Below, piece by piece: positions 15,432 to 44,714 of a DNA stretch of 44,794 bases. The notes under the pieces are model-generated. The model was not told the DNA's origin. It saw only the letters and a list, made by a program, of their open reading frames with translations, and did not search any database. How positions within the stretch are numbered: the first letter of the stretch is position 1; every line of letters starts with the position of its first letter. The position numbers and the translations under genes are program-made. This stretch comes from Nitrospiria bacterium (lineage in GTDB: Bacteria > Nitrospirota > Nitrospiria > SBBL01 > JAADHI01), in assembly GCA_046756725.1 (NCBI GenBank), contig JBHHWW010000001.1:1-44794 (forward strand). The letters run 5' to 3'.

Positions 15432-16759
15432 AGTTCAATCTTAAAAAGGATTTTTTGAGAGATAACTTACTGATTAAAGAAAGAAATATAGACTGTTTTT
15501 CCCATATGGAGACTTATATTTTTTTTCTGGCATGGCTGCTTGTTTTCTCAATGTCATCGTCCGGGTGGTCCAAGGAATTACCCGGGGCTGCGCTTCCTAA
15601 AGCTTCCTTTACCCACAAAGAAATGAAGGAAATCTACAGACGTGGCCGTTATGACCAGGTAATTTCAAAATTAAGCAATCTTAATGAACTGGATTCTACT
15701 CAAGCCCTTTTCCTGGGCTTGAGTTATCTCAGAGAGGGTTCGTCAAAGAAGGCAATTTCTGCTTGGCAGCATTATGTTCACCTTGAAGAAGGAAGTGAGG
15801 GAGGTAGGACTGTCTCTCAGTACTTGACGATTCTTATGCAGAGAGAGGCGCGCCGGTCCGCCCGGAATCTTGTCTTGAAAGAAAAAAACCTTTTCAGGAA
15901 AATAAATCCAAAAGCCATCGCCGTTTCTCCATTTCAAAACCTGGGAAGCGAAGCGTTTTCTCCTCTTTCCAAGGGGTTGGCGGCCATGGTAATGACTGAT
16001 CTTTCGAAAGTAAATGAGTTGACCGTTGTTGAGCGGATTGAAATGTCTGCCATACTGGATGAGCTCAGGTTGTCAAAATCAGGATTGGTCGATAAAAAAA
16101 CAGCCCCTCGTGTTGGACGGCTTGTCGGGGCGGGAAAAGTGACGACTGGAACATACCTTGATGTTGAAGACAAGATCATGCGCCTAAATGCGGCGGTGAC
16201 ACTGACAGAGAACGGACGGCTTCTTTCTGCCTCAAATTCATCCGGGGAAATACCCACTTTTTATATTTTGGAAAAAAGACTGGTGTTTCAGATTTTGTGT
16301 GGTATCGGTTATTGCCCTGAAAATCTCGATAAACAAGTGCGTCTCGAAATCGAGAAAGTTCATACAAAAAATTTCCAGGCCTTCCGTTTTTATTCTGAGG
16401 GGCTTGATTTTCTTGACCAGGGGAAATATCGAAAGGCCTCCCAGGCCTTCTTTTTTGCGCTTGAAGAAGACCCGGCATTTAAGTTGGCCAGAAAGGCTTT
16501 ACTTGAAACCCCGATTCTTCCATTTAATCTGGATGCGATGATTGCGGGTGGTGAATCGATCGTTTCAGGCGAAAATACCTTATTGACCCTGGGGCCCCTC
16601 CTGGTTTCCCCCTTGCCTGTCAAGGTCGCCGAATCTGATGGAACGTCGGTCAGGATTACGCCGGAAATTTTCCAGCAGCCGGTGACAGCAATCAAGGCGG
16701 GGGCGCCTGCGAATGTCCAGGTCCAAATCCAGATTAATATCTCAGAATCCGGACCATAG
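15428..16759 (+). CDS. Secreted TPR-like protein with a CsgG/TolB-N-like module
   Basis: ATGA overlap with the upstream gene (alternative start ATG 15506 directly before the hydrophobic signal). The module is KAIAVSPFQNLGS...VVERIEMSAILDELRLSKSG...RVGRLVGAGKVTTGTY. TPR-like helices flank it. Confidence 0.7.
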   Translation: MKFNLKKDFLRDNLLIKERNIDCFSHMETYIFFLAWLLVFSMSSSGWSKELPGAALPKASFTHKEMKEIYRRGRYDQVISKLSNLNELDSTQALFLGLSYLREGSSKKAISAWQHYVHLEEGSEGGRTVSQYLTILMQREARRSARNLVLKEKNLFRKINPKAIAVSPFQNLGSEAFSPLSKGLAAMVMTDLSKVNELTVVERIEMSAILDELRLSKSGLVDKKTAPRVGRLVGAGKVTTGTYLDVEDKIMRLNAAVTLTENGRLLSASNSSGEIPTFYILEKRLVFQILCGIGYCPENLDKQVRLEIEKVHTKNFQAFRFYSEGLDFLDQGKYRKASQAFFFALEEDPAFKLARKALLETPILPFNLDAMIAGGESIVSGENTLLTLGPLLVSPLPVKVAESDGTSVRITPEIFQQPVTAIKAGAPANVQVQIQINISESGP

Positions 16760-16814
16760 TATAAAGGATTTAAGTGCCCTTGATGCCCGTTTGTTGTAAA
16801 ATGAGAAAGGTCCC

Positions 16815-20912: not shown

Positions 20913-20921
20913 TCAAGTTAA

Positions 20922-22570: not shown

Positions 22571-23368
22571 TTATTTCGAAATCGCTTTTTTGAGCGATGT
22601 GATCAGGTCTGATAATTTGGCAAGATAATTCGGGTTGTCTGGTGCGGTTGCGATGATTCGGACAAGGGCGCTTCCGACGATGATGCCATCTGCACTTCCG
22701 GCGATTTTTGAGGCTTCTTCAGGGCTTGAAATACCGAAACCGGCGGCGACCGGTCGGTCGGTCATTTCTTTCAGTGCTGAAATTCGTTGAGAGATGGATG
22801 CCCAGTCCTTCAATGTGGTGCCTGTCACGCCGGTGACGGGAACATAATAAACAAAGCCGCTTCCCGCCTTCAAAATCTTTTCAATTCGTTCAGGCGGAGT
22901 GGTCGGTGCGACCAGAAAAATCAGGTCAATCAGGTGTTTCCGGCCTTGATGGATGAAATCTCTGGCTTCTTCAATAGGAAGGTCGGGAATAATGATTCCA
23001 TTGACGCCGTTTCGTCGGGCCGCTTTAAAGAAGTTTTCAAGTCCGAAGGCATAAATCGGGTTGCAATAGGTCATGAGAATGAGGGGAATTTTTGTCTGCC
23101 TTCGAAGGGTTTTGACGAGGTCGAGCACTTTTGTGAGTGTGACGCCCTTTTGAAGGGCTCGATCTGCGGCTTGCTGAATGGTGGGACCATCAGCAATCGG
23201 GTCTGAAAACGGGATGCCAATTTCAATGATGTCTGCCCCTGCTTTCTCCATTTCGAAGACGATGCTTAGGGTTTCATCCAGGGATGGGTCGCCTGCCATT
23301 ACATAGGCGATCAGGGCTTTGTCACCCATTACGCCCACATTTTTAAGCGTTGCCTCAATCCGGCTCAT
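22571..23368 (-). CDS. trpA: Tryptophan synthase alpha chain
   Basis: [11 protein letters not shown]..., [22 protein letters not shown]. The ATG at 23368 is preceded by GGGAGG and overlaps the trpB end by 14 nt. Confidence 0.93.
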
Positions 23369-24587
23369 TTTGCCTCCCGTGTTTTTCTCTTGTCGCTCCC
23401 GACAGGCCGCAGATCTTTGCAATCTGGTCCACATCTTTGTCGCCGCGCCCTGAGAGGTTGACGATAATGAGTTGATCTTTTTTCATGGAAGGGGCGATTT
23501 TAACGAGATGGGCAATCGCGTGTGATGATTCGAGGGCAGGGAGAATGCCTTCTGTTTCTGAAAGGAGTTGGAAGGCGGCGAGCGCCTCGTCATCAGTCAC
23601 AGAAGTGTAGGTAATTCGGCCACTGTCCCGGTAATAGCTGTGCTCCGGCCCGACGGCGGGGTAGTCTAGGCCAGCGGAAACGGAATGGGTTGCCTGGATT
23701 TGTCCATCTGCGTTTTGGAGCAGCATGGACATCGTGCCGTGAAGCACTCCAATTTCGCCGCTTGCAAATCGGGCGGCATGTTTACCAGTTGTAATTCCCA
23801 GTCCGCCTGCCTCGACACCGACCAAAGCAACAGAAGAATCGGAAAGGAAGGGGTAAAAGAGGCCGATGGCATTGCTCCCGCCGCCGACACAGGCAAGTAA
23901 AAGGTCCGGGAGTTGACCGGTGAACCGGAGGATTTGTTGTCGCGCCTCCTGACCGATGACGGCCTGGAAATCCCGGATCATCATCGGGTAGGGGTGGGGA
24001 CCGAGCACGGAGCCGAGAATATAATGGGTGTCTTTGACGTTTGTGGTCCAGTCACGAAGCGCTTCATTGATGGCATCTTTCAGGGTCCTGCTCCCGACAT
24101 CGATTCCCGTCACTTTGGCACCCAAGAGGCGCATTCGAATGACATTGAGCGCCTGTCGCTCCATATCTTCAGTGCCCATGTAGATTTCACAGGCCAGGCC
24201 GAAGCGGGCGGCGACGGTGGCGACGGCCACGCCATGTTGCCCCGCGCCGGTTTCCGCGATGACACGCTTTTTCCCCATGATCCGTGTCAGTAAGATTTGC
24301 CCGATGGTGTTGTTGATTTTATGCGCCCCTGTGTGACAAAGATCTTCTCTCTTGAGGTAGATTTGGGCGCCTCCCAGATGTTCGGTCAGACGTTTGGCAA
24401 AATAGAGCGCGGTGGGACGGCCCACATAATTTTTGAGATTTTCGCTTAACTCATTTTTAAACGCCGGTGTTCTCCGGACAGCCTGGTATGTAAGTTCTAA
24501 TTCCTGGAGTGCAGGGATGAGCGTTTCGGCAACATATCGTCCACCGTAGGGGCCGAAGCGCCCTTTTTTATTCGGTAGCTGCGGCAT
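23355..24587 (-). CDS. trpB: Tryptophan synthase beta chain
   Basis: [31 protein letters not shown] (PLP lysine), [17 protein letters not shown]. Confidence 0.97.
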
Positions 24588-25218
24588 TGCCAGTTCCTTT
24601 TTCTTTTGCGGCAGAAATAAATGCTCTCATTTTCCTTGGGTCTTTCTTCCCTTTTTGTCTCTCGACCCCGCTGCTGACATCGACGCCGTAGGGCTGAACG
24701 GTCTGGATGGCTGTTTTAACATTATTTGAGGTCAGTCCTCCAGCCAGAATCACTTTTCCGAATTGTTTTGCAGGGGTGGCGAAGTTCCAATTGAACGCGA
24801 TTCCACTGCCGCCCGCCACTTTTTCGTGATAGGTATCCAGAAGAATGGCGCGTCCGGAAGCGGAGATAAACCCCTTGAGGGAGCGTTCATCTTTGACCTG
24901 GATGACCTGGATCGCCCGGTGGGAAAAGTGGAGGAGTGTTTTGTGGGGAAAATCTCCGTGAAATTGAATCAAATGGACGCCGGAGAGGGCGATCAGATTC
25001 TGAATATCTTCAATTTCTGAGGCGGTAATCACGGCCACTGTGGTGATAAAGGGAGGCAGCTTTGAGATGATTTTTTTTGCTTCGATGGCTGAAATATGTC
25101 GTGGGCTTTCCGGGGCGAAGACGAAGCCCAATGCATCCGCACCCAGTGCTACCGCTGAAAGCGCATCTTCTAAATTTGTAATGCCGCAGATCTTGACTTT
25201 CACCTCTGAAGGTCTCAT
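24568..25218 (-). CDS. trpF: Phosphoribosylanthranilate isomerase
   Basis: [12 protein letters not shown]..., [17 protein letters not shown]. It overlaps trpB by 20 nt. Confidence 0.9.
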
Positions 25219-25237
25219 TCCTGAAAATCTCTAATGA

Positions 25238-26029
25238 TTACAAGCCTTCCGTAAACAAGCCTTTTATTTTTTCGTTTATTTTTTCAGAAGCCATGAGTGA
25301 TTCGCCAATTAAAACAGCATCGATCCCGGCCTCTCCAAGCCGGACGATTTCCCTTCGGGATGAGATGCCGCTTTCGCTGATGATGGTGCGATCAGATGGA
25401 ATCTCCGGAAAAATCCGGAAGGTCGTTTCAAGATCGGTCTGAAATGTTGTCAGGTCTCGATTATTGATGCCGATCATGGGTGCCCATTCAATGACTCGCT
25501 CCAATTCTTTTTCATCATGAATTTCGACAAGCACGTCGAGTGAAAGTTCTTGAGCCAGATCAAAATAATCTTTCATCTGTCTTTTTTCCAGAAGTGCTGT
25601 GATGAGAAGGATTGCATCCGCTTCCCAGGCCCGTGCCTCGTATATTTGTAGCTCATCAATCATAAAATCTTTTTGCAAGAGGGGCAGGGAGACCTTTTTC
25701 CGAACCTTATGAATATAGGAGGGATGTTCCAGGAAATAATGTTCTTCCGTCAGTACGGAAAGGGCTGCCGCGCCATTGTCTTCATAAATTTGTGCAATTT
25801 CAATGGGGTCAAAAGATGCTCGAATGATGCCTTTTGAGGGGGAAGCCTTCTTTATTTCAGCGATGAGATGGGGGCGGGGGCGACCTTGATGTGTCACTGC
25901 ATTTTTGAAAGGACGGGTTGGTTCTGTATCTGCAATTTTTGATTGAACTTCCTGAAGATATCGCCGACCTTTTCGCTTGCCCACGGCCGCCCGCTTTGTT
26001 GCCGCTATTTTATCTAGGATGTTCATCAC
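25238..26029 (-). CDS. trpC: Indole-3-glycerol phosphate synthase
   Basis: LIAEIKKASPSKG, LSVLTEEHYF, LLQKDFMIDELQIYEAR, GINNRDL, ISESGI. Confidence 0.93.
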   Translation of the reverse strand: MMNILDKIAATKRAAVGKRKGRRYLQEVQSKIADTEPTRPFKNAVTHQGRPRPHLIAEIKKASPSKGIIRASFDPIEIAQIYEDNGAAALSVLTEEHYFLEHPSYIHKVRKKVSLPLLQKDFMIDELQIYEARAWEADAILLITALLEKRQMKDYFDLAQELSLDVLVEIHDEKELERVIEWAPMIGINNRDLTTFQTDLETTFRIFPEIPSDRTIISESGISSRREIVRLGEAGIDAVLIGESLMASEKINEKIKGLFTEGL

Positions 26030-26038
26030 GATACTGGA

Positions 26039-27049
26039 TTATTGGTGGGTCATCTCTTGGAGTTTCTCAAGTTTCGACATCGCCTTTCCGGAATCAATCG
26101 ATTCTGCCGCGATCTGCAGGCCCTCCTGAAGGGTCTTTGCTTTTCCGACGGCGACCAGGGCAGGCGCTGCATTCATGAGAACAACATCTCTTCTTGAACT
26201 TTTTTCTCCCCGGAGAATGGCGAGAAGGATGGCCGCATTTTTGTGGGCATCTCCGCCAATCAAATCTCTTATCTGTCCCTTGGGAAGTTGAAAGTCTTTT
26301 GGTTCTATAAAATAGGCGGCAACACGGCCTTTTTTCCCTTCGGACACACGGCTTTTTCCAGTGTTTGTTATTTCATCCAGGCCGTCCATGCCATGCACGA
26401 TAAAACAATGTCTCGAAGAAAGATTGACCAAAACTTGCGCAAGAAGGTCGGTCAGTTCCGGAGCGAAGACGCCAAGGACCTGAATCGAGGCCCTCGCAGG
26501 ATTGGTCAAAGGGCCCAGGATGTTAAAAATGGTCCGGATTCCGGTTTCCTTTCTTGGAATGACGGCATGTTTCATCGCGCCATGGAAGAGCGGGGCGAAA
26601 AGAAATCCAATGCCGATCTTGTTAATGCAGGCTTCTACTCGATCAGGGGAGATATCGATTTTCACCCCGACCTCTTTTAATACATCTGCGCTTCCGCAAG
26701 CGCTCGATACCGACCGGTTTCCATGTTTGGCAACGGTGGCACCTGCACCTGAAACGACAAAGGCTACGGTGGTCGAGATATTAAAGGTGTTTTTTTTGTC
26801 TCCTCCCGTACCGCAAGTATCCACGACCAGTGGATCATCGACGCGGACATGGATTGCTTTTTCCCGCATGACACGCGCCGAGCCGGTAATTTCGGAGACC
26901 GTTTCTCCTTTCATACGCAAGGCTGTGATGTAAGAAGCAATTTGCGAAGGGCTTGCGGCGCCCTCCATGATTTCTCTCATGACGGCTTCGGCTTCGGCTT
27001 CATCCAGGTCAATGCGTTCTACAATCTTACTGATGGCTTCTTTAATCAT
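26039..27049 (-). CDS. trpD: Anthranilate phosphoribosyltransferase
   Basis: [36 protein letters not shown]-like. The ATG at 27049 is preceded by GAGGAA. Confidence 0.93.
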
Positions 27050-27109
27050 TCTGTGATTCCTCAAAGCAGTGGATTTGTGAGTTCCTTTCGTTGTTTTGAT
27101 TCGAGTGCC

Positions 27110-27673
27110 CTACATTTTTAGAAAGTTTTTCAACAGTTTCTTGCCGACACCGGTCAAGATGGATTCCGGGTGGAATTGCACTCCCTCGATTGGAAGACGC
27201 TTATGCCGGATTCCCATAATTTCTCCTTCATCTGTCCAGGCAGTCATCTCAAAAATGTCGGGCAATGTGTCTCTTTCCAGAATAAGTGAATGGTAGCGGG
27301 TCGCTTCAAATGGCTGGGGGAGATTGTTGTAGATTGTTTTCCCGGTGTGAGCAATCATCGAGGTTTTTCCATGCATTAAGCGATCTGCCCGAATGACTTT
27401 CCCTCCGAATGCCTCACCAATGGCTTGATGACCGAGACAAACACCCAGTATGGGTATTTTCTTGCCGAAGGTTTGCACTATCGCAATGGAAATGCCTGCA
27501 TCTTTCGGTATTCCCGGACCGGGAGAAATAACGATTTTTTCGGGTTGCCTTTGTTCTATTTCGGATAAGGTAATTTGATCGTTACGATATACCGTGATGT
27601 CTGCGCCCAGTTCACCTAGATATTGAACCAGGTTGTATGTAAATGAGTCGTAGTTGTCAATGACGAGGAGCAT
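27110..27673 (-). CDS. trpG: Anthranilate synthase component II (glutamine amidotransferase)
   Basis: [33 protein letters not shown] (catalytic Cys), GVQFHPES. The ATG at 27673 overlaps the trpE end by 17 nt. The longer 262-aa ORF in the track is an upstream extension with no family similarity. Confidence 0.93.
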
Positions 27674-29177
27674 GTTGCCGCCCTTGGGGTTCAAGACCAT
27701 TATTGGCCAAATCCAATGCCGCCAACATCGCCTTGGCTTTATTGACTGTTTCCTGATATTCCCGGTCCGGGTCAGAATCGGCAACGATGCCTGCTGCTGC
27801 CTGTACGTTTGCCTGGTTCCCTTCAATAACGATTGTTCGTATGGTAATGCAGATATCCATGTTGCCTTGAAAGCTGAAATAGCCCACGGCGCCGGCATAG
27901 AGCGAGCGACTTTCCGTTTCGAGTTCGTCTATGATTTCCATTGCCCGTATCTTGGGTGCGCCGGTGACGGTGCCAGCTGGAAAACAGGCTTTTAAAACGT
28001 CGAAGGCATCTTTCCCTTTTTCTAAGTCACCAGCCACATTGGAGACGATGTGCATGACATGAGAGTAGCGCTCGATCACCATTAATTCATCCACTTGAAC
28101 AGTGTCATATTCACATACACGGCCGATGTCATTCCGCCCGAGGTCGATCAGCATGACATGTTCTGCACGTTCTTTCGGGTCTGCGAGAAGCTCTGCTTCC
28201 AGAGCCTTATCTCCTTCGGGAGTGTGGCCGCGAGGACGGGTTCCGGCAATGGGACGTGTTTCGACCCGGTTCTCTTCAAGGCGGACGAGTACTTCCGGAG
28301 AGGTTCCGACCAGGTGGTTCTGATCTAACTGGAGATAAAACATGTAGGGTGAGGGGTTGATGGTTCGAAGGGCGCGATAGACCATGAATGGGTCTGTTTT
28401 AAGTTCGACAGAAAAACGTTGTGAAATCTGAACTTGAAAGATATCTCCTGCCTTAATATATTCCTTTGCCTTCAGAACGGATTTTTTAAACCGATTCCGG
28501 GTGACATTTGAGGTCGGTGTATTTCCCTCCTTTGTTGCTCCTAAGGCATTGTTTTGTTCAAGGGGACGGTTTAAGCAGGCGATTAAGGCATCGATTTTTT
28601 CAATGGCCTGATCATAAACACCCCTCAAGTCCTCACCTTTAATCACCGCATTGGAGACAACCTTAATCCGGTGCTGTACGTTGTCGAAGATCAAGAGACT
28701 GTCGGTAATGAGGAAGAAGAAGTCAGGCGTTGCTTTGGGTGGATGCCGGGAAGTTATTGGCTCAAAAAAACGGACCATATCGTATGCGAGATAACCGACG
28801 GCACCTCCGAAAAATCGAGGCAGTCCTTCTACATTGACTGGCTGATACTCAGAAAGAATCTTTTTCAGAAAGTGAAGTGGATCTTCGCCGGTCGGGTGTT
28901 TCTCCACCTTTCCATTCCGGGTGACGATTACTTCCGACGGCCCCCCTTGGATGATGACAGAAGGATTGGTTCCGAGAAAGGAATATCGTCCCCATTTTTC
29001 ACCGCCTTCGACCGATTCAAAGAGGAAAGGATAGTCCCCTTTTCGTATTTTAAGAAAGGCAGAAACAGGGGTTTCGCAATCAGCGACAACTTCCCGATAA
29101 AGGGGGACGAGATTCCCTTCTTTGGCTTTTATGGAAAATTGCTGAAATGACAGATTTAACAACCGATACAACCTCAA
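27657..29177 (-). CDS. trpE: Anthranilate synthase component I
   Basis: [20 protein letters not shown], chorismate-binding C-terminal half (GTRPRG..., [12 protein letters not shown]-like [26 protein letters not shown]). Only TTG starts are available (29177, 29171 or 29162). Confidence 0.93.
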
Positions 29178-29838: not shown

Positions 29839-30993
29839 TTGAGTCGAACGAAAGAAGTTAGTTTCAAATCAACCCTTTATTCTCTCGTCTTTTTATTTTT
29901 CTTTGTTGTTCCTACTTTAGCAACGGCTGAGCCTGACCCCATGGTCGGGAAACATCTGTTTCGTCATTACTGCGCCGTCTGTCATGGTTTTTCAGGCAAG
30001 GGCGATGGGATTAATGCCGATCATTTAGGCGATGTGCATCCGACTGATCTGACCACGTCTGAGTTTGACAAGTATGACGATGAGGAAATTTATGAAGTCA
30101 TTGAAGGAGGGGGGGCAGCGGTCGATATTTCTTATTATATGCCTCCTTGGGGCGGCGTCTTTGATGAAGAGCAAATACATAGCATTATCGCATATGTTCG
30201 GACTTTGTCGGCGGCGCAGGGCAGTCCGATTTCGGATATGGTGCGGGTTCCTGTCAATCGAAGTGGGAAGAAGGAGTGTCGCGTCTGTCATGTAGAAACG
30301 ACGAGTGTCTTGCGGCCCATCGCACCCAATATTGGACATGAAGGGAGCAAGTTGAAGCGCGATTGGCTAGAGACTTTTTTGAAGCAGCCGGAGAAGTTGA
30401 GGCCGATTGGTTTTATGCCCTTCACGAAGTCGAAGATGCCCAATTTTTACTTCACAGATGGCGAGGTGACTGCGCTTGTCGATTATCTGATGACACTCAA
30501 GGATGAAGGTATTGACGAAAGCGTTCTGATGGGTTGGGATGCTTCAGATTCAGCATTGATCGAAGAGGGGCAGTTCCTTTTTGAAGAAGAGTTCGCCTGC
30601 GACGGCTGTCACAAACGGTCTCCTGGCGGCGATGGCGGGATCGTCGGGCCAGAGCTGTCGTATGCAATGGAACGGATTCGCGTGGAGTGGATGTTTTACT
30701 GGATTAAAAACCCGCAAGCGATTCATCCAAATTCTCCAATGCCGAATTTCAGGATGTCGGATGAACAAATCCGGGCTGTTCTCGCTTATATGTCCAGTCT
30801 GAGTGAGGGGCGTTCAGTTGCAGCAACTGTTGCGGATGTTTCAGGCAGTGCGACCAGTATTGCGCGGGGAAAGAAAATTCTCGAAGGAAAGAACTGTGTT
30901 GGGTGCCATCTGGTTGATTCATTTAATAGTCAGTTGAAGGTCGAGGGTGATTCCCTCGGGGCGAGTGATTCGTCCGAAGGCATAGAAGAATAA
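29839..30993 (+). CDS. Secreted tetrahaem c-type cytochrome (class I-like domains)
   Basis: Signal peptide ...VVPTLATA. Haem motifs are CAVCH, CRVCH, CDGCH and CVGCH. Met-ligand regions are MPPWGG, MPNFYF and MPNFRM. TTG is the only start that includes the signal peptide (in-frame stop at 29833). Confidence 0.85.
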   Translation: MSRTKEVSFKSTLYSLVFLFFFVVPTLATAEPDPMVGKHLFRHYCAVCHGFSGKGDGINADHLGDVHPTDLTTSEFDKYDDEEIYEVIEGGGAAVDISYYMPPWGGVFDEEQIHSIIAYVRTLSAAQGSPISDMVRVPVNRSGKKECRVCHVETTSVLRPIAPNIGHEGSKLKRDWLETFLKQPEKLRPIGFMPFTKSKMPNFYFTDGEVTALVDYLMTLKDEGIDESVLMGWDASDSALIEEGQFLFEEEFACDGCHKRSPGGDGGIVGPELSYAMERIRVEWMFYWIKNPQAIHPNSPMPNFRMSDEQIRAVLAYMSSLSEGRSVAATVADVSGSATSIARGKKILEGKNCVGCHLVDSFNSQLKVEGDSLGASDSSEGIEE

Positions 30994-31015
30994 AACGTTG
31001 AAAAGGGGGGCAAGA

Positions 31016-31540
31016 ATGACGAAGAGGGTTTCGCTTTGGGTGCTGGTTTTGTTCGCAGTATTAATGCTATTGATTCCTGATTTGGGTCATGCAAAAAAAG
31101 ATGATGATAAGCCCTTAAAACCTGTTCCTAAAGCCTATGCGGACAAGAAAATGCCGAGTGGGTGGTGGACCGATGCAAAAATTATTGCAGAGGGAAAAGA
31201 GATCTTTGAAACACGGAAGATAGAATACATTTACAAGAGGAAGAAAAAGGTTGCAAAAGAAGGTTGTGCGACCTGCCATGCGATCAATAAGAAAAAAGAC
31301 CGCCCAAAAAAGCGGGGTGCCCGTGACTTTCGCGTAGCAAAACGGATGAACCGTTTTTCAGAGTCCTACTGGTTCTGGCGGATTGCCGAAGGGGTTAAGA
31401 AAACGGCAATGCCCGCGTGGAAAAAAGAGCTTACCGACGAAGAAATTTGGAAAACGATAGCCTACGAGCATACTTGGTCGCATGGGAACAAGCCTGCGGT
31501 TCATGATCATCCGGAAATTGAACATACATTTGAAAAATGA
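31016..31540 (+). CDS. Lys-rich monohaem c-type cytochrome
   Basis: Signal peptide, CATCH, distal TAMPAW. The ATG at 31016 is preceded by AAGGGGGG. Confidence 0.85.
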   Translation: MTKRVSLWVLVLFAVLMLLIPDLGHAKKDDDKPLKPVPKAYADKKMPSGWWTDAKIIAEGKEIFETRKIEYIYKRKKKVAKEGCATCHAINKKKDRPKKRGARDFRVAKRMNRFSESYWFWRIAEGVKKTAMPAWKKELTDEEIWKTIAYEHTWSHGNKPAVHDHPEIEHTFEK

Positions 31541-35147: not shown

Positions 35148-37610
35148 ATGGTTTTTAAAAAAGTAATAAAGCAACCCATGGTCTGGGCATCTTTTCTCAT
35201 TGCCTTACTCCTCTTGATACCAACTGGTTCACTTTTTGCCGAAACAGTAGAATCTCTTTACCGTGACGTGCCCAGTATGGGCAGTCGTAATATCATCTGG
35301 TTGTTTTCTCAGGTTCACATTTTATTCGGGGCCTTTGTCCTGGGTGTTCCGATGTTTATTATCATCATCGAAATTATCGGTATTACGACAGGAGAGAAGC
35401 GGTATGACCGCTTGGCTCAGGAATTTATGGATTTGATTGTCGCGTGTTTTGCGACGACGGCCACGATCGGGATTTTCTTTCTTTTTGCGTTGCTCGTCTT
35501 CTATCCCACACTCATGTCAACGATGGCAGACATCTTTAAACCGACTTATTATATTTATGTCTTACTCTTCTTATATGAAACCCTTTCTGTTTATGTTTAT
35601 TGGGATCGCTGGGATAAATGGCAGAACCGCAAAGGACTTCATCTTTTCTGGGGTTTTATGCTCAATACCGCTGGAATCTTGCTTGTTATCTTGCCAAGTG
35701 GCTTTCTTGCTTTCCAGGCGAGCCCTGTGGTCTTGAATCCTGAGTTTGGCCCTTGGGAAAAGGCTTGGGCGGCACTTAATAATCCGACTTGGGTTCCCGT
35801 GATTATCCATCGGATTGTTGGAAACCTCATCTTAGGAGGGTTTGTTTGCGGGGCCTACGCCGGGGTGGCTTACCTGGGCGCTAAAACGCAGGAAGAGCGG
35901 GAACATTACGACTGGATGGGATATATCGGAAATTTTATCGGGGTTTTCGGTCTCCTCCCAATGCCCTTTGCAGGTTATTATTTGATGCGCGAAGTCTATG
36001 AATACAACCAGCAGATGGGGATTACTTTGATGGGAGGGATCCTGTCCTGGCTTTTTATCTTACAGGCTGTGCTCATCGGGGTTCTTTTCCTTGGTGCCAA
36101 TTATTATTTCTGGCAGGGAATCGCTTACCGAACCCATTCCGCGCCAAAGTATAAAAACGCCATTGTTATTATGTTGGTTGCATTGGTTGGGGCTTTCTCT
36201 GTCTGGCTTACACCTCATTCGCTTGTGGCCAGTGTTTCTGAAGCCAGAGCAATGGGAGGAGCGCATCATCCACTCCTGGGGGTGTTTGGTGTTATGTCGG
36301 CCAAGTTGACTGTTGTGAATTTGATGATTGTGACAACCTTTGTTTGCTTTATCTTATACTGGCGGGCAGATAAGGTTGTGACTGTTAAGTGGGGGAAGGC
36401 CGCAAATATATTTACAGTTGCTTTGATTACCGTTGCGGTTATTTTCATTATCTGGTTGGGTGTCTACGGTTATTTTGTCCCCTCTGTTTATCGTGTGAAT
36501 GTCCTTTCCGTTGCTCAGGTGTTTGCTGTTCTTTTTGTGATGTTTACGATTACGCCTCTCACGGCACTTTCCTTGAAATCTGCGAAATTGACCCATGAGA
36601 TGAAGTGGGGTGTCATGCCGCCTCGCTCCCAGTATGCTTTGGTTATCAATGCTGTCTTTGTGGTTTTAACGATGGCGCTGATGGGATATGCCCGGTCTGC
36701 GTCCCGGGTTCACTGGCATATTTATGGTGTTTTGGAAGATACCTCTTCATATGCCTATACCCCGACCCTCGGTGTCGCGTCTTTCCTTTTTGTGCTGTCC
36801 ACAGCTGTTTTTTGCATAATGACGGGCATTGTTTTTTGGACCTCGCACACGATCCGACATAATCGTTTTTCCACCCGTTACTTCTTTCTAGCCCCTGTTT
36901 TTATGTGGTTTACGGAATTATTTGGGGACAAACAGAAGGAGAAAAAAATACATGCGGGAGGACGGAGGTTTGTTATTACGAAAGTAACGGCTGTGGTCGG
37001 TCTATTTTTGCTTGCCTACGCCTACGTAGGTTATCAAGTACCTCAGAAAGTGGGTCTGCCACCCGAGAAGAAAGCCTTGGATCTGTCTAAGATTAAAACC
37101 AAAGACGATATGGTTCAAATTGGACAGGATATTTTTTATAGCAAGGGGCAGTGTGCCCTTTGTCACTCAATCGGAGCCGGCCATGGTCGCTGTCCGAATC
37201 TTTTAGGAGTCGGGGCGCGTTTGACGCGAGAGTTTATCTATGAAACGCTGGTAAAGCCAGAGGCCTATATCAAGTTGGACTTTCATTCTGCAAAACCAGT
37301 AAATTATGCTGCAGAAATGCCCATTATCAACAAGGCCCCCATTGGTCTATCCGAAGAGGAGCTTTTGACCGTAGTTGCTTTTGTTCAGAGCAATGGTGGA
37401 AAAGTCACGGTCACTCCAGAAGAGTTGAGAGAGACGTCAAGTGGGCCGGAAACAGTGCCGGGGGGCCTCGATGTGCCTCCGGAAGTAGAGCCAGCTGAGA
37501 TGATTGGAGAAGAATCTAATGAAGATCCTGAAGAACTTGCGATGTTTGGTGGAAAATCCCCGAGGAATACAGAGCATTCTAGTATGGCTGAATTAAAAGT
37601 AGGTGAATAA
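35148..37610 (+). CDS. Cytochrome bd subunit I-like ('bd-like') oxidase with extra TM helices, fused to a C-terminal monohaem cytochrome c domain
   Basis: CydA-like N-terminus GSRNIIWLFSQVHILFGAFVLGVP (axial His), LFLYETLSVYVYW (conserved Glu), VIIHRIVGNLILGGF (second His). About 14-16 hydrophobic segments, then CALCH (37152-37166) and an acidic tail. No cydB-like gene is adjacent. The ATG at 35148 is preceded by AGAGGGA; a TTG at 35109 is possible. Confidence 0.85.
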   Translation: MVFKKVIKQPMVWASFLIALLLLIPTGSLFAETVESLYRDVPSMGSRNIIWLFSQVHILFGAFVLGVPMFIIIIEIIGITTGEKRYDRLAQEFMDLIVACFATTATIGIFFLFALLVFYPTLMSTMADIFKPTYYIYVLLFLYETLSVYVYWDRWDKWQNRKGLHLFWGFMLNTAGILLVILPSGFLAFQASPVVLNPEFGPWEKAWAALNNPTWVPVIIHRIVGNLILGGFVCGAYAGVAYLGAKTQEEREHYDWMGYIGNFIGVFGLLPMPFAGYYLMREVYEYNQQMGITLMGGILSWLFILQAVLIGVLFLGANYYFWQGIAYRTHSAPKYKNAIVIMLVALVGAFSVWLTPHSLVASVSEARAMGGAHHPLLGVFGVMSAKLTVVNLMIVTTFVCFILYWRADKVVTVKWGKAANIFTVALITVAVIFIIWLGVYGYFVPSVYRVNVLSVAQVFAVLFVMFTITPLTALSLKSAKLTHEMKWGVMPPRSQYALVINAVFVVLTMALMGYARSASRVHWHIYGVLEDTSSYAYTPTLGVASFLFVLSTAVFCIMTGIVFWTSHTIRHNRFSTRYFFLAPVFMWFTELFGDKQKEKKIHAGGRRFVITKVTAVVGLFLLAYAYVGYQVPQKVGLPPEKKALDLSKIKTKDDMVQIGQDIFYSKGQCALCHSIGAGHGRCPNLLGVGARLTREFIYETLVKPEAYIKLDFHSAKPVNYAAEMPIINKAPIGLSEEELLTVVAFVQSNGGKVTVTPEELRETSSGPETVPGGLDVPPEVEPAEMIGEESNEDPEELAMFGGKSPRNTEHSSMAELKVGE

Positions 37611-38430
37611 TAGATTGTTGATTGAAATAAAACGAAACTACTTGCTTGTCTCGATACTGTTGCTCTTTATCCTCTTTTCAGTAGGGTGCGAAAATAAATA
37701 TGTTGCCAAGGGACATGAGATTTATAGTCGTTACTGTTCTGCGTGCCACGGTGAGAAGGGCGATGGGACCGGATACAATGCGGGGAATCTTGATCCAGTT
37801 CCTCGCGATTTGACCGATAGCGAAGAAGTCTACATGTCAAAACTATCGAATGATGAAATCTTTGAAGTCCTTCAATTGGGTGGTTACGGGGTGGATCTTT
37901 CAGGAGGGATGCCAGTCTGGGGAAAGGTATTCTCGGAAGAAGAACTCTGGTCTCTTGTCGCCTATGTCCGTACGCTTCATCCGAATGAAGGCAATGAGAT
38001 TGTATTTACAAAACCTGATTCTGAAGAACCGGTATTTGATTCAAAGCGCGTGCGATATCCCAAGGTGAAAGAAAAAAATTTTTACGACCTTCTTGGGTCT
38101 CTGGCGCCTGATGAAGATGCTTTCCAGGAACAAGTCGCTTTGGGAGAAGAGATCTTTAGTGAAGTCGGGTGTAATGCGTGCCATAAGGTGAATGGAGAAG
38201 GGGGGGAATTGGGGCCTGATTTATCCCGAGCCGGTTTTATGCTCCAAACCCAGTTCATCTTTCGTTGGATCATGAATCCGCAATCGTTTCTCCCTAAAAC
38301 GAGGATGGCAAACCTGGATTTAAAAGAGGAAGATGCCCTTGCTATTTCTCTCTACCTAAGTACACTGAACGGTGATGCTCCAAAAAATAATGTTTCAGAG
38401 GAAGATGAAGATGAGGGTGGGGGAGTTTAG
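37603..38430 (+). CDS. Dihaem c-type cytochrome, probable lipoprotein
   Basis: Signal with ...FSVGC, then CSACHGEKGDG and CNACHKVNGEG, with Met regions GMPVWG and KTRMANL. The GTG start overlaps the upstream stop by 8 nt. Confidence 0.85.
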   Translation: MNNRLLIEIKRNYLLVSILLLFILFSVGCENKYVAKGHEIYSRYCSACHGEKGDGTGYNAGNLDPVPRDLTDSEEVYMSKLSNDEIFEVLQLGGYGVDLSGGMPVWGKVFSEEELWSLVAYVRTLHPNEGNEIVFTKPDSEEPVFDSKRVRYPKVKEKNFYDLLGSLAPDEDAFQEQVALGEEIFSEVGCNACHKVNGEGGELGPDLSRAGFMLQTQFIFRWIMNPQSFLPKTRMANLDLKEEDALAISLYLSTLNGDAPKNNVSEEDEDEGGGV

Positions 38431-38432
38431 AT

Positions 38433-39179
38433 ATGAAATTACCTCTAATTGTTAAGGCCACAGCCACTGAATTAGGAATCTACGCTTTTTTAAAATTGGG
38501 GATGCCTCTTTTTACGAGTCCTCTTCCTTCCAGTGTTGTCTTTATGTACATGACCTTGGCGACGATATCGATCCTGGTCTACGTTTCGATTTATGAGGAT
38601 GACTTTAATAACTTTTATGTTCCGATTACTTCGTTTATTCGTGGAAATGCGGAAGACAATGCCGGTCGGAAAATGAGCCGTGCAGCCGTATTGATCATGA
38701 TTCCTCTCTTTTTCGGTTTTCGTTCATATCAGAGTGTACAGCCTAATTATGAGCCTCCTTTTCCGCAACGTGTCATTCATCCCGCGCCTCCTGGTTCGGC
38801 CGCAGGATTTACGAATCCCTACGGAGATGACGAGGCAAATCATGAAGCATTTGTTCAAGAGGGGAGAGATGTCTACTATCGCAATTGTGTTTTTTGTCAC
38901 GGCGACAAACTGGATGGAAAAGGTTTATTCGCCCATGCGTTGAATGTTAAACCAGCGAATTTTGCAGATTCAACAACGATTTCAATGCTGATGGAATCCT
39001 TTGTTTTTTGGCGTGTCAAGACGGGAGGCATCGGGTTGCCTGAAGAATCGACTCCGTGGGATTCTGCGATGCCGAGATGGGAATTGATTTTATCGGAAGA
39101 GGAAAGATGGAAAGCCATTATGTTTTTATATGACTATACGGGTTGGAAACCACGGACTTGGGAATTAGATGCGGAGTGA
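38433..39179 (+). CDS. Membrane-anchored (about 3 TM) monohaem c-type cytochrome
   Basis: The N-terminal hydrophobic segments are followed by CVFCHGDKLDG and distal SAMPRW. It starts 2 nt after the upstream stop. Confidence 0.8.
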   Translation: MKLPLIVKATATELGIYAFLKLGMPLFTSPLPSSVVFMYMTLATISILVYVSIYEDDFNNFYVPITSFIRGNAEDNAGRKMSRAAVLIMIPLFFGFRSYQSVQPNYEPPFPQRVIHPAPPGSAAGFTNPYGDDEANHEAFVQEGRDVYYRNCVFCHGDKLDGKGLFAHALNVKPANFADSTTISMLMESFVFWRVKTGGIGLPEESTPWDSAMPRWELILSEEERWKAIMFLYDYTGWKPRTWELDAE

Positions 39180-40810: not shown

Positions 40811-41305
40811 GTGATTAAAAATGCTGTCATTATCCTGCTCATTCTATTGGGTTCTGTGGGCCCACTTTTAGCGACGCATGAGGCGGATCATCGATATGTT
40901 CTGTCAGGTTATGTAAGAGACACAAGTGGCATTCCCCTATCTGAGGTGACGGTCTTTTTGGAACATAAAGGGGGAGAAAAAAAGAGTATAAAAACAAATA
41001 ACGACGGTTACTATGAAATTCTTTTTCACCTACATAATAGTAATCTTGGGGATCAAATAATTGTTAAGTATGGAGAGAATAAAATAAAACACAGAGTTGA
41101 GTTTGATCCTGATGATAAGTTCACGAATAGAGGCGCGGAATTAAATTTTGGTGCACCTGGGAAGGAAAGTGGAAATTTTTGGATTTATTTGACTGGGGGC
41201 GGCATCCTTGTTTTTCTCCCCTTTGTGTATAGAGGTTTCTTCGGGAAAAAAAAGGTTGTAGGTAAGGTTTCGGCAGAAAAAAAACGAAGAAGAAAGAAAT
41301 CGTAA
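40811..41305 (+). CDS. Secreted CarboxypepD_reg-like beta-sandwich protein with a C-terminal TM helix and polybasic tail
   Basis: Signal peptide, then YVLSGYVRDTSGIPLSEVTVFLEHKGGEKKSIKTNNDGYYEI. A TM segment FWIYLTGGGILVFLPFVY follows. The tail is KKKVVGKVSAEKKRRRKKS. Confidence 0.6.
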   Translation: MIKNAVIILLILLGSVGPLLATHEADHRYVLSGYVRDTSGIPLSEVTVFLEHKGGEKKSIKTNNDGYYEILFHLHNSNLGDQIIVKYGENKIKHRVEFDPDDKFTNRGAELNFGAPGKESGNFWIYLTGGGILVFLPFVYRGFFGKKKVVGKVSAEKKRRRKKS

Positions 41306-41341
41306 GGTTGGTATGGAATGTGACGATGGAGGTTGTGAAAG

Positions 41342-41893
41342 ATGAGCCCGGTAGAGAGTAGCGATGAAGATGTCAGCCGTCGACGCTTCTTTACCCTGAT
41401 GGGGTTGGGTGTCGGATGGGGTGGTGTGGCAGCGGCTTTGGGAGGCGTGGGTGTTGGTGCGGCACGCTATATGTTTCCGTCTGTGGTTTATGAACCACCC
41501 ACTGTATTTAAAATAGGGCTTCCCAGCGATTATGGAATCGGAACCGATACGAAACTCAAAAAAGAACGACAGATTTGGGTTGTGCGCAATACTAAGGGGA
41601 TCTATGTTCTGGTCGCAATCTGTCGGCATTTGGGATGTACCCCGAACTATTTTAATGATCAACAATTGTTTCGGTGTCCCTGCCATGGCAGTATCTACGA
41701 TATTTATGGCAATGTCCTTGGCGGACCGGCACCGCGCACTTTGTGGCGTACAGCAATTTCTATTGACCCCGTCGATGGACAGATTGTCGTCGATTTTAAT
41801 CGTAGGCAAGATCCCGATCCGAAAGGAACAGAAGAAGGACTGATGGTGGATGAGGCAAGCAGAGAAGTCGAGCCCTTCTTTTTAAGGGTTTAG
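41342..41893 (+). CDS. Rieske [2Fe-2S] subunit with a Tat signal
   Basis: Twin-arginine [12 protein letters not shown]. Cluster boxes are CRHLGC and CPCHGS. GGAGG lies upstream of the ATG. Confidence 0.93.
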
Positions 41894-41915
41894 TTGTCAT
41901 GAGGAGCAAGGCAGG

Positions 41916-42686
41916 ATGTTGAAATTACTTCAGCAGATTCGCGCAGTAATTAATAAAACACAGGTATGGAAGTCCATTTTTCGACATGGTTATCCGGATA
42001 ACGATGGTAATCGCGCATTGGTGATGTTCAGCAATGTAATTTTACATCTCCATCCGGTTCGTATTCGACGAGGTGCCCTGAAAATAAAATTTACCTGGTG
42101 TTTGGGGGGGCTCACTTTTTTCTTCTTTATTCTTCTCGCGATTACGGGTGTATTCCTGATGTTCTATTACGTCCCGGATACGAACCGTGCTTACAATAAC
42201 ATTCGGGATTTGGGGACCGTTATCTTTTTTGGTGATTTATTTCGGAGTCTTCATCGCTGGTCTGCGCATGCGATGGTGCTGTTTGTCTGGTTGCATATGA
42301 CGCGGGTGTTTTTAACGGGTTCTTACAAACCTCCCAGAGAGTTTAACTGGGTTGTCGGGGTGATCTTGTTAGCAACAACACTGGTGTTAAGTTGGACGGG
42401 GTATCTTTTGCCGTGGGATCAGTTGGCCTTGTGGGCTGTGACGGTCGGAAGCAAAATGGCGGAAGCGTCTCCACTCATTGGAAAGGCGGGGCCATTTGGG
42501 CCGGAGTTAGGGATGACAGCCGATAATGATATTACCTTTGCCTTACTTGGGGGAACGGTTGTTGGTCAGAGTGCTCTGCTTCGTTTCTATGTCCTTCACT
42601 GTCTCGCTTTGCCGTTAGTGACTGCTCTTTTTATAGCCGTTCATTTTTGGAGAATCCGGAAGGACGGATTCTCGGGTCCATTATAA
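41916..42686 (+). CDS. Cytochrome b6-type (split) cytochrome b, N-terminal haem-binding subunit
   Basis: The His pairs are [15 protein letters not shown] (13 residues between ligands) and [16 protein letters not shown] (14 between). WCLGG matches the b6 YCLGG Cys. The C-terminus RKDGFSGPL is close to b6 RKQGISGPL. Confidence 0.93.
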
Positions 42687-42711
42687 ACAAACGATTTGAT
42701 TGAGGAAGTCT

Positions 42712-43572
42712 ATGTCAGAGAAATCTTCAGGTTCCGCGGCTACCGCAACAGAAACCCCGTCGAAATCTTTAGCCGAAATGATCAAGAGGACTGCTAAAGA
42801 AAAAATTGGGCCGGAAGACACAGTCTTGGTATGGCCAAACCTGGTTTACCTAGAATTAATTTCCATGCTTTTTGCCTTGGCAATTTTGTTATTCCTTTGC
42901 TTGTATTCTCCCGCACCATTGGAAGAGCTCGCAAGTGCCGATACGACGCCAAATCCGACGAAGGCGCCTTGGTATTTTCTAGGATTGCAGGAACTGCTTG
43001 TTTATTTTGATCCCTGGCTTGCCGGGGTTGTCCTGCCGTCTCTGATTATCGTCGGACTTATTCTGATTCCGTATATTGATCCAAACCCCAAGGGGAAGGG
43101 GTATTATTGTTTTTCTGAAAGGAAGTTTTCTGTCTTGGGTTTTAGTTTTGGATTAGCACTCTGGTATATTTTGATCGTGATTGGGGTCTGGTTCAGAGGG
43201 CTTGATTGGTCCTGGTATTGGCCGTGGGATGATCCACATTTCCATCAACCAGCAGGTGCTGTTAAGCTGGTTGATCTGCAGGTGATTATCCAGAGTGCGC
43301 TCGGGTTGAGTGAAAACCCGATCGTTACCCTGGGGCGTTATGCGATAACGATCGCAAATATGATCACTTGGGCGATATTTTTAGGATATTATGCCATTGG
43401 TTTTACAATCCCTGCTATTTTTATGCGGAGCTTTTATAATCGTTTGGGGTTCGTCAGGTACAATTTGACCATGGTCATGTTTCTATCCATGATGGGCGTT
43501 CCTTTAAAAATCTTTGTTCGCTTATTGGCGGATATTAAGTATGTGCTTGTGACACCTTGGTTTAATATTTAA
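42712..43572 (+). CDS. Subunit IV-like / cytochrome b C-terminal subunit with extra C-terminal helices
   Basis: PetD-like core WPNLVYLEL...TKAPWYFLGLQELLVYF...LILIPYID. At about 286 aa it is much longer than the roughly 160-aa subunit IV. The ATG at 42712 is preceded by GAGGAAG. Confidence 0.85.
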   Translation: MSEKSSGSAATATETPSKSLAEMIKRTAKEKIGPEDTVLVWPNLVYLELISMLFALAILLFLCLYSPAPLEELASADTTPNPTKAPWYFLGLQELLVYFDPWLAGVVLPSLIIVGLILIPYIDPNPKGKGYYCFSERKFSVLGFSFGLALWYILIVIGVWFRGLDWSWYWPWDDPHFHQPAGAVKLVDLQVIIQSALGLSENPIVTLGRYAITIANMITWAIFLGYYAIGFTIPAIFMRSFYNRLGFVRYNLTMVMFLSMMGVPLKIFVRLLADIKYVLVTPWFNI

Positions 43573-43593
43573 CTTTCTTGGATGAGGTTCTAA

Positions 43594-43734
43594 ATGGATG
43601 ATCTATGGGCTTATCCCTATCGTTTGGGGATTGGAATCTTCATTGTGGTCGGGACTATCCTCCTGACTGGGGGTTTTGTTGCTTTTACTGCCTGGCTTGA
43701 ACATGATTTTAAAAAGGATAAATCGAAAAAGTAG
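43594..43734 (+). CDS. Unlisted 46-aa single-TM peptide, candidate small subunit of the Rieske/cyt b complex
   Basis: ATG at 43594 with GAGG 7 nt upstream. The translation is MDDLWAYPYRLGIGIFIVVGTILLTGGFVAFTAWLEHDFKKDKSKK*, with one hydrophobic helix and a basic tail. It is too short to appear in the supplied ORF track and fills the gap between subunit IV and the tetrahaem c gene. Confidence 0.5.
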   Translation: MDDLWAYPYRLGIGIFIVVGTILLTGGFVAFTAWLEHDFKKDKSKK

Positions 43735-43793
43735 GTACCCTTATACAACAGCTTAATAGATATTGAAGTGTTGAAGAGGAGAACGATCGGTAT

Positions 43794-44714
43794 ATGGTAA
43801 AGCATTTTGTTTTTGCGGTTTCAAGTGTTCTTGTAGTTTTTCAGCTAGGCATCTTTGTTTATAAATATGAAACAGCCGAATGGAGAACCTATCAATCGAC
43901 CTATTATCAAAAACTTTCCGAGGTCGTAAATCAGCCGAGCATTGCAGAGACCCCTCTTAAGGTTGATCAAATCTGGGATAAAAATCTCAATCGACCGGAT
44001 CGTTGTACGACTTGTCATGGTGGAATTGCAAATCCGGCTTTTGAGAGTGAGTCACAACCTTACAAAGTCCATCCACATTTTAAAGACAAGGGTTTTATTT
44101 CGAAGCATCCATTTGAGAAATTCGGGTGCACCATTTGCCACGAAGGAAATGGGCAGGCCGTTACTGTGGCTGCAACGCATGGTGTTGTTCATCATCTAGA
44201 TCGGCAGTTGTTGACGGGTCCCTATGTTCAGGCTTCCTGTACAAAATGTCATTATGAACTTCATTCCCGCGATGTCTATTGGCCTGAGGCAGATGTTCTC
44301 ATGAAAGGGAAGCAACTTGCTTATGAGTTGGGATGTGGCGCTTGTCATGCAATTCGACAATTTGGCACAAACCCGACTGTTGCGCCTGAAATTTCAAATA
44401 TGGGAAGTAAAACAGAACTCGCTTTTTCTCTTGTCCATGATTTTACACATCTTGAATCAGAAGATCATCTGACGCGTGTTTGGGAATTTGAACACTTCAA
44501 AGATCCGCAAAAAATTGTTCCCGGTAATCCTGATGCGGAAGATCCAAAAGAACGCACTTCGCCTACTATTATGCCAGATTGGGATTTGACGGATGAAGAA
44601 GCCACTGCATTGACTGTTTTCGTGATGTCGCTCAGGGACCCTCAAGTTGAAAATATTCCGAGATCCTACTTTCCAAAGATTGATAGCCACGAAGGCTTCC
44701 TTCAGTACAGATAG
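43794..44714 (+). CDS. Membrane-anchored tetrahaem c-type cytochrome
   Basis: N-terminal TM FAVSSVLVVFQLGIFVY. Haem motifs are CTTCH, CTICH, CTKCH and CGACH. GAGGAG lies upstream of the ATG. Confidence 0.85.
   Translation: MVKHFVFAVSSVLVVFQLGIFVYKYETAEWRTYQSTYYQKLSEVVNQPSIAETPLKVDQIWDKNLNRPDRCTTCHGGIANPAFESESQPYKVHPHFKDKGFISKHPFEKFGCTICHEGNGQAVTVAATHGVVHHLDRQLLTGPYVQASCTKCHYELHSRDVYWPEADVLMKGKQLAYELGCGACHAIRQFGTNPTVAPEISNMGSKTELAFSLVHDFTHLESEDHLTRVWEFEHFKDPQKIVPGNPDAEDPKERTSPTIMPDWDLTDEEATALTVFVMSLRDPQVENIPRSYFPKIDSHEGFLQYR

Follow-up and report, generated by a model that had tools for sequence, protein, structure and literature searches.

A cytochrome bd-like protein of the OR-N2 type with a fused cytochrome c domain in a TO_2 gene cluster of a Nitrospiria bacterium

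Introduction

What kind of enzyme is a CydA-like protein that carries extra membrane helices, two histidine-rich motifs and a cytochrome c domain at its C-terminal end? We have addressed this question for a gene located at positions 35148 to 37610 of a 44,794-nucleotide stretch from a Nitrospiria bacterium (contig JBHHWW010000001.1 of the assembly GCA_046756725.1, positions 1 to 44,794 of the forward strand), which is called here the window. An earlier note on this gene, made from the sequence alone, had proposed that the built-in haem c receives electrons from cytochrome c rather than from quinol, and that the HH and HWH motifs of the protein resemble the copper-ligand pairs of haem-copper oxidases.

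The protein can be identified, close to certainty, as a member of the OR-N2 family of bd-like oxidases and as a component of the complex named TO_2. It is probable that the gene encodes the haem-binding core subunit of TO_2 in a Candidatus Manganitrophaceae bacterium (Nitrospirota), and that this subunit is a cytochrome c-dependent bd oxygen reductase of the OR-N2 type. The protein type, the loss of the quinol site, the cytochrome c donor, the possible copper histidines and the gene cluster are all already known from the literature, and the evidence that connects the window with them is presented below.

Results

A CydA core in a protein with 14 membrane helices

The gene was read from the ATG at 35148, which is preceded by a Shine-Dalgarno-like AGAGGGA and whose position is shared by the homologues; an alternative upstream start, the TTG at 35109, was dropped on these two grounds. 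In the 820-residue product, Pfam recognizes Cyt_bd_oxida_I (PF01654) at residues 54-300 (E 4e-13, above the cut-off; profile positions 10-253 of 418) and Cytochrom_C (PF00034) at residues 658-748 (23.6 bits against a cut-off of 21.3), and gives no match to COX1. The CydA signatures that the earlier note had read in the N-terminal third, i.e., SR (46-47), SQVHILF (54-60, with H57), LYETLS (142-147, with E144) and VIIHRIV (218-224, with H221), are all present in the translation. The other elements that it had described were equally confirmed at their coordinates, namely the HH of GGAHHPLL (residues 370-377; HH at nucleotides 36264-36269), the HWH of SRVHWHIY (519-526), the haem-binding motif CALCH (669-673; nucleotides 37152-37166) and an acidic tail, with 15 D+E against 4 K+R in the last 60 residues.

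A search retrieved 4018 homologues, the best named ones belonging to Candidatus Manganitrophaceae and Nitrospiria. Fifty of them, with 50-85% identity to the protein and a mean column identity of 54%, were used as a close set. The profile of these 50 homologues aligned with the solved CydA chains over residues 44-239 only (PDB profile search), and the hhalign comparison with E. coli CydA covered residues 46-187. In these alignments H57 corresponds to H19 of E. coli (H21 of Geobacillus), E144 to E107/E108 and H221 to H186, and H165 adjoins H126. The alignments show that the four-helix core of CydA is kept, with H57 as the predicted ligand of the active-site haem, E144 as the putative proton-channel residue, H165 as the putative channel histidine and H221 as the predicted ligand of the low-spin haem b.

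Hydropathy and the secondary structure of an AlphaFold model gave a signal peptide or anchor followed by 14 transmembrane helices (TM), in agreement with the 14-16 hydrophobic segments that had been claimed against 9 in canonical CydA. If TM1 is taken to start on the outer side, like that of canonical CydA, the cytoplasmic loops contain 32 K+R in 141 residues and the periplasmic ones 8 in 147. On this clear positive-inside pattern the c domain, the HH loop between TM8 and TM9 and the HWH motif at the outer end of TM12 are all predicted to be periplasmic. The charge distribution thus speaks against a cytoplasmic position of the c domain, which the earlier note had named as an objection to its own proposal.

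The long Q-loop, which that note could not recognize, was not found in our analysis either: the loop at the Q-loop site is short, the loops following TM6 have 17-28 residues, and the 820-residue protein gives no match to the C-terminal half of the CydA profile. The Q-loop and quinol residues (K252, E257; helices 6-7) were undetected, the Pfam match stopping at profile position 253 of 418 and the CydA alignments ending by residue 239. Pfam scans of the larger open reading frames (ORFs) of the window gave no match to CydB (Cyt_bd_oxida_II), which is weak negative evidence. These results show a protein with 13 helices of its own that appears to have lost both the Q-loop and the quinol site.

In the structural comparison, the ten best Foldseek matches of the model are only CydA chains (E 1e-5 to 3e-4, probability 1.00), and the matches with E <1e-3 are exclusively CydA chains as well, so that canonical CydA provides the sole significant structural matches. 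No likeness to the haem-copper oxidase fold was found, the best Foldseek match of that kind being 4g71_A (E 0.62, probability 0.08). Compared with canonical CydA (E. coli 6rko/6rx4; G. thermodenitrificans 5doq), the protein therefore has in common the N-terminal core with the equivalents of H19, E107, H126 and H186, but it differs in having 13+1 helices where canonical CydA has 9, in lacking the Q-loop and the quinol site, in having no CydB gene found nearby, in the replacement of the equivalents of E99 and, judged by colinearity, of E445, and in the fused cytochrome c.

Assignment to the OR-N2 family

The OR-N family was defined by Murali, Gennis and Hemp (2021), who described OR-N1 and OR-N2 proteins with 14 helices and OR-N2 operons that carry several cytochromes c and an EbdC homologue. 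Their Table S6 lists for the OR-N2 reference TKS59798.1 the residues H99, Y183, E190, H213, H269, M430, S563 and W569. The counterparts in the window protein are H57, Y137, E144, H165, H221, M383, S517 and W523, with offsets of 42-48 residues, and thus the protein matches the OR-N2 pattern H/Y/E/H/H/M/S/W at the positions 19/99/107/126/186/393/445/441 of E. coli. Since these signature residues are colinear with those of TKS59798.1, and since the E107 position is occupied by Glu and not by the Gly of OR-N1, we have filed the protein under OR-N2. The operon trait is found too, since the cluster contains six genes for c-type cytochromes besides the fused c domain, one of them fused to an EB_dh domain. 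The 14 helices, the missing quinol site, the residue signature and the cytochrome c/EbdC-type operon are therefore common to OR-N2 and to the window, and nothing essential differs.

In PMC12342949, OR-N2 is identified with the NIDE0901-like protein of Nitrospira that is called 'cytochrome bd-like oxidase'. The homologues of Nitrospira and Nitrospinota are 55-58% identical to the window protein and likewise have a C-terminal cytochrome c. A CydAA' pairing has been proposed for Nitrospira, whereas the cluster of the window is without a second CydA-like (OR-N1) gene. The bd-like oxidases described by Lücker et al. (2013) also have 14 helices and conserved N-terminal haem b ligands; in these proteins three helices replace the Q-loop and the quinol-binding residues are absent.

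The OR-C family (Desulfobacterota, Acidobacteria and others) resembles the window protein in the loss of the quinol site, in a periplasmic haem c extension and in cytochrome c as the presumed donor, but OR-C proteins form a separate clade with about 8 helices and keep both E99 and E107, whereas the window protein has 14 helices and a Tyr at the E99 position, and membership of OR-C was rejected on the helix number and the E99 position.

The fused cytochrome c module

The c domain contains a CxxCH motif (C669, C672, H673) and a distal Met-Pro (M724-P725), all of them invariant in the 50 homologues. Conservation and the domain matches rule out a chance occurrence of the CxxCH. The nearest solved relative of the domain is Kustd1711 (7zs0; profile match E 1e-20), a dihaem cytochrome with His/Met ligation and a potential of about +350 mV, whose gene belongs to the anammox nxr cluster. 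Both share the His/Met ligation and the conserved MP motif, although Kustd1711 is a soluble, Ca2+-binding protein with two haems and a 'nose' domain, whereas the window domain, anchored in the membrane and joined to CydA, has a single predicted haem. The high potential of this closest solved relative supports the view of the c domain as a high-potential electron-entry module.

Two loci from metagenome-assembled genomes (MAGs) of Candidatus Troglogloeales, L023 and L026, contain the same module in split form (L023:989-3657 and L026:1369-4077). There, a CydA-like gene of 616-628 residues is accompanied by a separate gene of 271-273 residues for an anchored dihaem cytochrome c. The orthologue stops after TM13, and the next gene encodes a single helix and a cytochrome c that aligns with the window protein from residue 609 on and has a second CxxCH. 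These alignments show the window protein as the apparent fused, one-haem form of a partner subunit that is separate in some relatives, and the split genes identify the c module as a genuine partner subunit.

The proposal that electrons arrive from cytochrome c and not from quinol has therefore stood up well. The c domain is predicted to be periplasmic, its Met-Pro is kept, it resembles Kustd1711, and the quinol region is missing, so that electron entry from cytochrome c is well supported as a prediction. The accompanying statement that this would be atypical for bd oxidases holds for the canonical bd enzymes, but not for the published OR-N and OR-C families, which are defined by a cytochrome c donor.

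The TO_2 gene cluster

Between 29839 and 44714 the + strand carries 13 genes that overlap or are separated by short gaps. They encode, in this order, a tetrahaem cytochrome c, a monohaem cytochrome c, two MrpD-like subunits, the bd-like protein, a dihaem cytochrome c, an anchored monohaem cytochrome c, a dihaem cytochrome c fused to EB_dh, a CarboxypepD_reg-like protein, a Rieske protein, a PetB-like cytochrome b, a 5-helix protein and another tetrahaem cytochrome c. All 13 genes are found, with the order kept, in MAGs labelled Candidatus Manganitrophaceae or Nitrospiria, whose bd-like proteins are 57-88% identical to that of the window. In the closest of these MAGs, which include a Guaymas Basin (GBIDBA) contig, the identity is 76-88%.

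This gene content and order match those of TO_2, a complex reported to be unique to and common to the Manganitrophaceae (Yu et al., 2022, mBio; PMC9040806). As described there, TO_2 comprises one periplasmic and one membrane cytochrome b besides the bd-like protein and the two MrpD-like subunits; its proposed role is to use electrons from Mn(II) for the reduction of O2 and perhaps for an uphill reduction of quinone. With respect to the published TO_2, the copy in the window is a new orthologue at the species or genus level.

Both MrpD-like subunits retain the TM5 Glu, TM7 Lys and TM12 Lys of the antiporter modules of complex I and, judged by these residues, look functional. The second subunit (597 residues) is divergent among the MAGs, with 83-85% identity in two of them and about 30% in most. 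At its C-terminal end, about 100 additional residues give no convincing alignment with the lateral helix of NuoL.

Downstream of the bd-like gene, the starts and stops of the two genes for the dihaem and the anchored monohaem cytochrome c overlap or abut neighbouring genes. The dihaem cytochrome c gene (37603-38430), which starts with GTG, shares its first 8 nt with the end of the bd-like gene, and its product shows a lipobox-like ...FSVGC after the signal sequence, which suggests that its translation may be coupled to that of the bd-like gene and that the product may be a lipid-anchored electron carrier. The EB_dh fusion gene also matches TIGR03477 with E 1e-26, yet under the cut-off of this family.

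The Troglogloeales loci are without MrpD genes and have instead a second CydA-like paralogue, resembling the TO_1 arrangement. Two further MAG loci, L011 and L024 (MAGs OFTM244 and OFTM249), contain a second bd-like copy, 76-77% identical, beside an MrpD1-like gene. This copy is not followed by the downstream cytochrome, Rieske and cytochrome b genes and looks like a partial duplicate of the cluster.

The histidine motifs and the copper question

H57, H165, H221, H373, H374 and H524, as well as the haem-binding C669, C672 and H673 and the M724-P725 pair, are invariant in the close set, and H522, H253 and H357 are conserved in at least 90% of it. The eight other His are not conserved across the 50 homologues. 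About 0.4 HH pairs would be expected by chance in a protein of 820 residues with 18 His; the conservation across homologues indicates that the HH, like the CxxCH, is real and not a chance occurrence.

A diverse set of 35 sequences, with identities down to 25%, gave a different picture for the members of each pair. H57, H165 and H221 are kept in 33-34 of the 35 sequences (H57 in 33/35), and there is comparable conservation at H374 (28/35), P375 (30/35), W523 (28/35) and H524 (27/35), but H373 and H522 are present in 9/35 and 12/35 only. Among the representatives taken at 50% identity, a small sample on which the co-occurrence of both residues rests, 5 have H373 and H522, 6 have H522 alone, none has H373 alone and 18 have neither. 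In these alignments each pair is thus composed of one family-wide His (H374, H524) and one largely clade-restricted His (H373, H522). The conservation that had been expected of all four histidines therefore holds in the near clade, where H522 is nearly invariant, and is limited in the family to H374 and H524.

The Troglogloeales loci contain a paralogous CydA-like gene (L023:7213-9366 and L026:7641-9719) in which YH and DWH replace HH and HWH. This paralogue is without a cytochrome c domain and carries an insertion of about 64 residues, with two extra helices, between TM10 and TM11.

The location of the motifs was a second point raised by the earlier note, for which histidines outside the membrane core would count against a copper site. 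This is partly so for the HH, which lies in a Gly/Pro-rich periplasmic loop (residues 358-380 with a predicted local distance difference test score, pLDDT, <50 in AlphaFold), and not for the HWH, which is within the model helix 492-528. H374 is located nine residues before M383, by colinearity the counterpart of the haem b558 ligand M393, and H524 adjoins W523, by the same colinearity the equivalent of W441 of the di-haem site. Since H374 and H524 would be near the haem sites, a role as haem ligands or in the haem environment is at least as likely as copper binding, and the same may be said of a haem-ligand role of H524 in particular.

The idea that such histidines bind copper is already in the literature. 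As cited in later papers, putative sites for haem b and copper led in 2010 (Lücker et al.) to the proposal that the Nitrospira paralogue NIDE0901 (bd-like_2) is a novel terminal oxidase. In its strongest form this idea would make the protein a hybrid, in which HH and HxH bind a CuB-like copper beside a haem and a haem-copper cytochrome c oxidase has arisen convergently on a bd scaffold. It would account for the presence of H373, H374, H524 and nearly always H522 within the clade, for H373 being found only together with H522 among the representatives taken at 50% identity, for the YH and DWH of the L023/L026 paralogue, and for the periplasmic position of both motifs close to the equivalents of haem ligands, and it is consistent with the putative copper sites that the later papers mention for NIDE0901-like proteins. 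However, the HH is located in a Gly/Pro-rich loop of low model confidence where haem-copper oxidases use a helix, H522 and H524 would be on opposite faces if this segment is helical, only one His of each pair is kept family-wide, and the model has no haem-copper fold match. Among the ORFs scanned with Pfam in the 44.8 kb window there was also no match to the Sco, PCuAC or CtaG families, which is weak negative evidence. We thus consider such a hybrid unlikely: the tests that were run have not refuted the reading of HH and HWH as copper ligands, but they lend it no support.

Features of the locus and the rest of the window

The coordinates of the domains of the protein and of the genes of the cluster are collected in Table 1.

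Table 1. Features of the OR-N2-type gene and of the surrounding TO_2 cluster, in window coordinates
Feature	Position	Strand	Basis
OR-N2-type CydA homologue ('cytochrome bd-like oxidase') with fused membrane-anchored monohaem cytochrome c, 820 residues	35148..37610	+	Pfam PF01654 and PF00034, homologues, Foldseek
Signal peptide or anchor, residues 1-30 (KK..K, hydrophobic core, then LFA/ET)	35148..35237	+	Hydropathy and charge
Conserved CydA core, TM1-TM5	35304..35876	+	Hidden Markov model and hhalign alignments to G. thermodenitrificans, M. smegmatis and E. coli CydA
Predicted periplasmic TM8-TM9 loop, residues 357-384: H357, GGAHHPLL (H373, H374), M383	36216..36299	+	Topology
SASRVHWHIY at the predicted periplasmic end of the TM12 helix (S517, H522, W523, H524)	36696..36725	+	Inside model helix 492-528
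TM14 anchor (609-631) and predicted periplasmic monohaem cytochrome c domain (~650-760; C669-x-x-C672-H673, M724-P725)	36972..37427	+	Pfam, profile match, conservation
Acidic disordered tail, residues 761-820, poorly conserved	37428..37610	+	pLDDT <50, alignments
Tetrahaem cytochrome c (384 residues) and monohaem cytochrome c (180 residues), secreted	29839..31540	+	Pfam, CxxCH counts, Manganitrophaceae synteny
Two MrpD/NuoL-like antiporter-type subunits, 518 and 597 residues	31623..35112	+	Pfam Proton_antipo_M E 1e-50, NCBIfam
Dihaem cytochrome c (possible lipoprotein, 275 residues) and membrane-anchored monohaem cytochrome c (248 residues)	37603..39179	+	ORFs, Pfam, CxxCH
Dihaem cytochrome c fused to EbdC/NxrC-like haem b domain (EB_dh), C-terminal membrane helix	39143..40747	+	Pfam EB_dh E 5e-18
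CarboxypepD_reg-like protein, Rieske protein, PetB-like cytochrome b, 5-TM protein, tetrahaem cytochrome c	40811..44714	+	Pfam, CxxCH and TM counts, synteny

Outside the cluster, a Ser/Thr protein kinase (11525-12749) is split in two overlapping ORFs, the first one encoding the N-terminal kinase half (11525-12049) and the second one the C-terminal half and a PEGA domain (11982-12749), which suggests a frameshift, a pseudogene or a sequencing error. It is followed by a co-directional block (12746-22502) that encodes a TPR/AhpC/CsgG-like protein, two CsgG-like proteins, a 1365-residue beta-helix protein (DUF1565/NosD-like) and a TPR protein with a weak match to MtrB/PioB-type outer-membrane porins (24.2 bits versus a cut-off of 23). 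This block may encode a cell-surface apparatus. Between it and the respiratory cluster there is a run of tryptophan biosynthesis genes on the - strand (22571-29177), with Pfam matches for trpE, trpG, trpD, trpF, trpB and trpA; the ORF 25238-26029 of this run was left unscanned.

Discussion

The assignment to OR-N2 and TO_2 suggests how the protein could work, although that it reduces O2 is something that we infer. In a cytochrome c-dependent oxygen reductase of this type, electrons from Mn(II) oxidation or from another high-potential source would reach the periplasmic c-type cytochromes and, through them, the fused haem c, which would hand them over to the low-spin haem b; from this haem they would reach the di-haem site and reduce O2 to water with protons from the cytoplasm. 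H374 (near M383) and H524 (beside W523) would most likely complete the haem environment, replacing the canonical M393 and E445, and H373 and H522 would be a clade-level addition that might bind a further metal or cofactor close to the haems at the periplasmic face. The two MrpD-like subunits would couple the redox reaction to ion translocation, either by outward pumping or by spending the motive force on sending some electrons uphill to quinone via the Rieske and cytochrome b proteins.

Several points weigh against this proposal. One proton-channel Glu is replaced, the E99 position being occupied by I136/Y137, and the haem ligand E445 is replaced by Ser (S517), as in the published table. Past TM5 the sequence does not align with that of canonical CydA, and the equivalences of M383 with M393, S517 with E445 and W523 with W441 come from colinearity with the published OR-N2 table and not from an alignment of our own. 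The AlphaFold model is moderate (pLDDT 70; predicted template modelling score, pTM, 0.74). In addition, related bd-like proteins are present in strictly anaerobic anammox bacteria, and the OR-N literature reports no purified member and assumes the reduction of O2.

Some of these points speak for an electron-transfer module that is not an oxidase and that would connect the cytochromes c, in one direction or the other, with the quinone pool or with the Rieske and cytochrome b proteins, similarly to a reversed alternative complex III, the MrpD-like subunits spending the motive force. The Rieske protein, the cytochrome b and the two antiporter-like subunits are indeed encoded in the same co-directional cluster, the equivalents of E99 and E445 are lost, reverse electron transport has been proposed for the homologous bd-like proteins of the NXR clusters of anammox bacteria, and Yu et al. 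(PMC9040806) weigh electron bifurcation or reverse flow for TO_2. On the other hand, the equivalents of H19, E107 and H126, which belong to the O2-reducing site and the proton channel, are almost invariant family-wide, and quinol-binding residues were undetected with Pfam. Moreover, a canonical cbb3 oxidase was not found in the marine genus (PMC9040806), and thus another complex must reduce O2 there. We regard a non-oxidase function as rather improbable, and a cytochrome c-dependent oxygen reductase is still the reading that we prefer.

This oxygen reductase could in principle be more elaborate. The paired histidines (H373/H374 and H522/H524) might form an extra metal or cofactor site by the di-haem centre, and TO_2 might be, together with its MrpD-like modules, an ion-pumping cytochrome c oxidase built on a bd scaffold. 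We think this quite unlikely, but if it were true, TO_2 would represent a third kind of pumping terminal oxidase, one that has evolved independently and is adapted to the very high-potential electrons derived from Mn(II).

The copy found in the window raises no new question and leaves the current beliefs on these enzymes unchanged. Its contribution is one further complete and well-assembled TO_2 copy, a new orthologue, and it adds some refinements: the c module is fused here and split in some relatives, family-wide histidines can be told apart from those largely restricted to the clade, and the antiporter residues are intact. The interest that remains comes from the OR-N family itself, which is biochemically uncharacterised. 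Nitrospira, Nitrospina and the Mn(II)-oxidising Manganitrophaceae, a group that accounts for a large share of global nitrite oxidation, are believed to rely mainly on bd-like oxidases of this family as their terminal oxidases.

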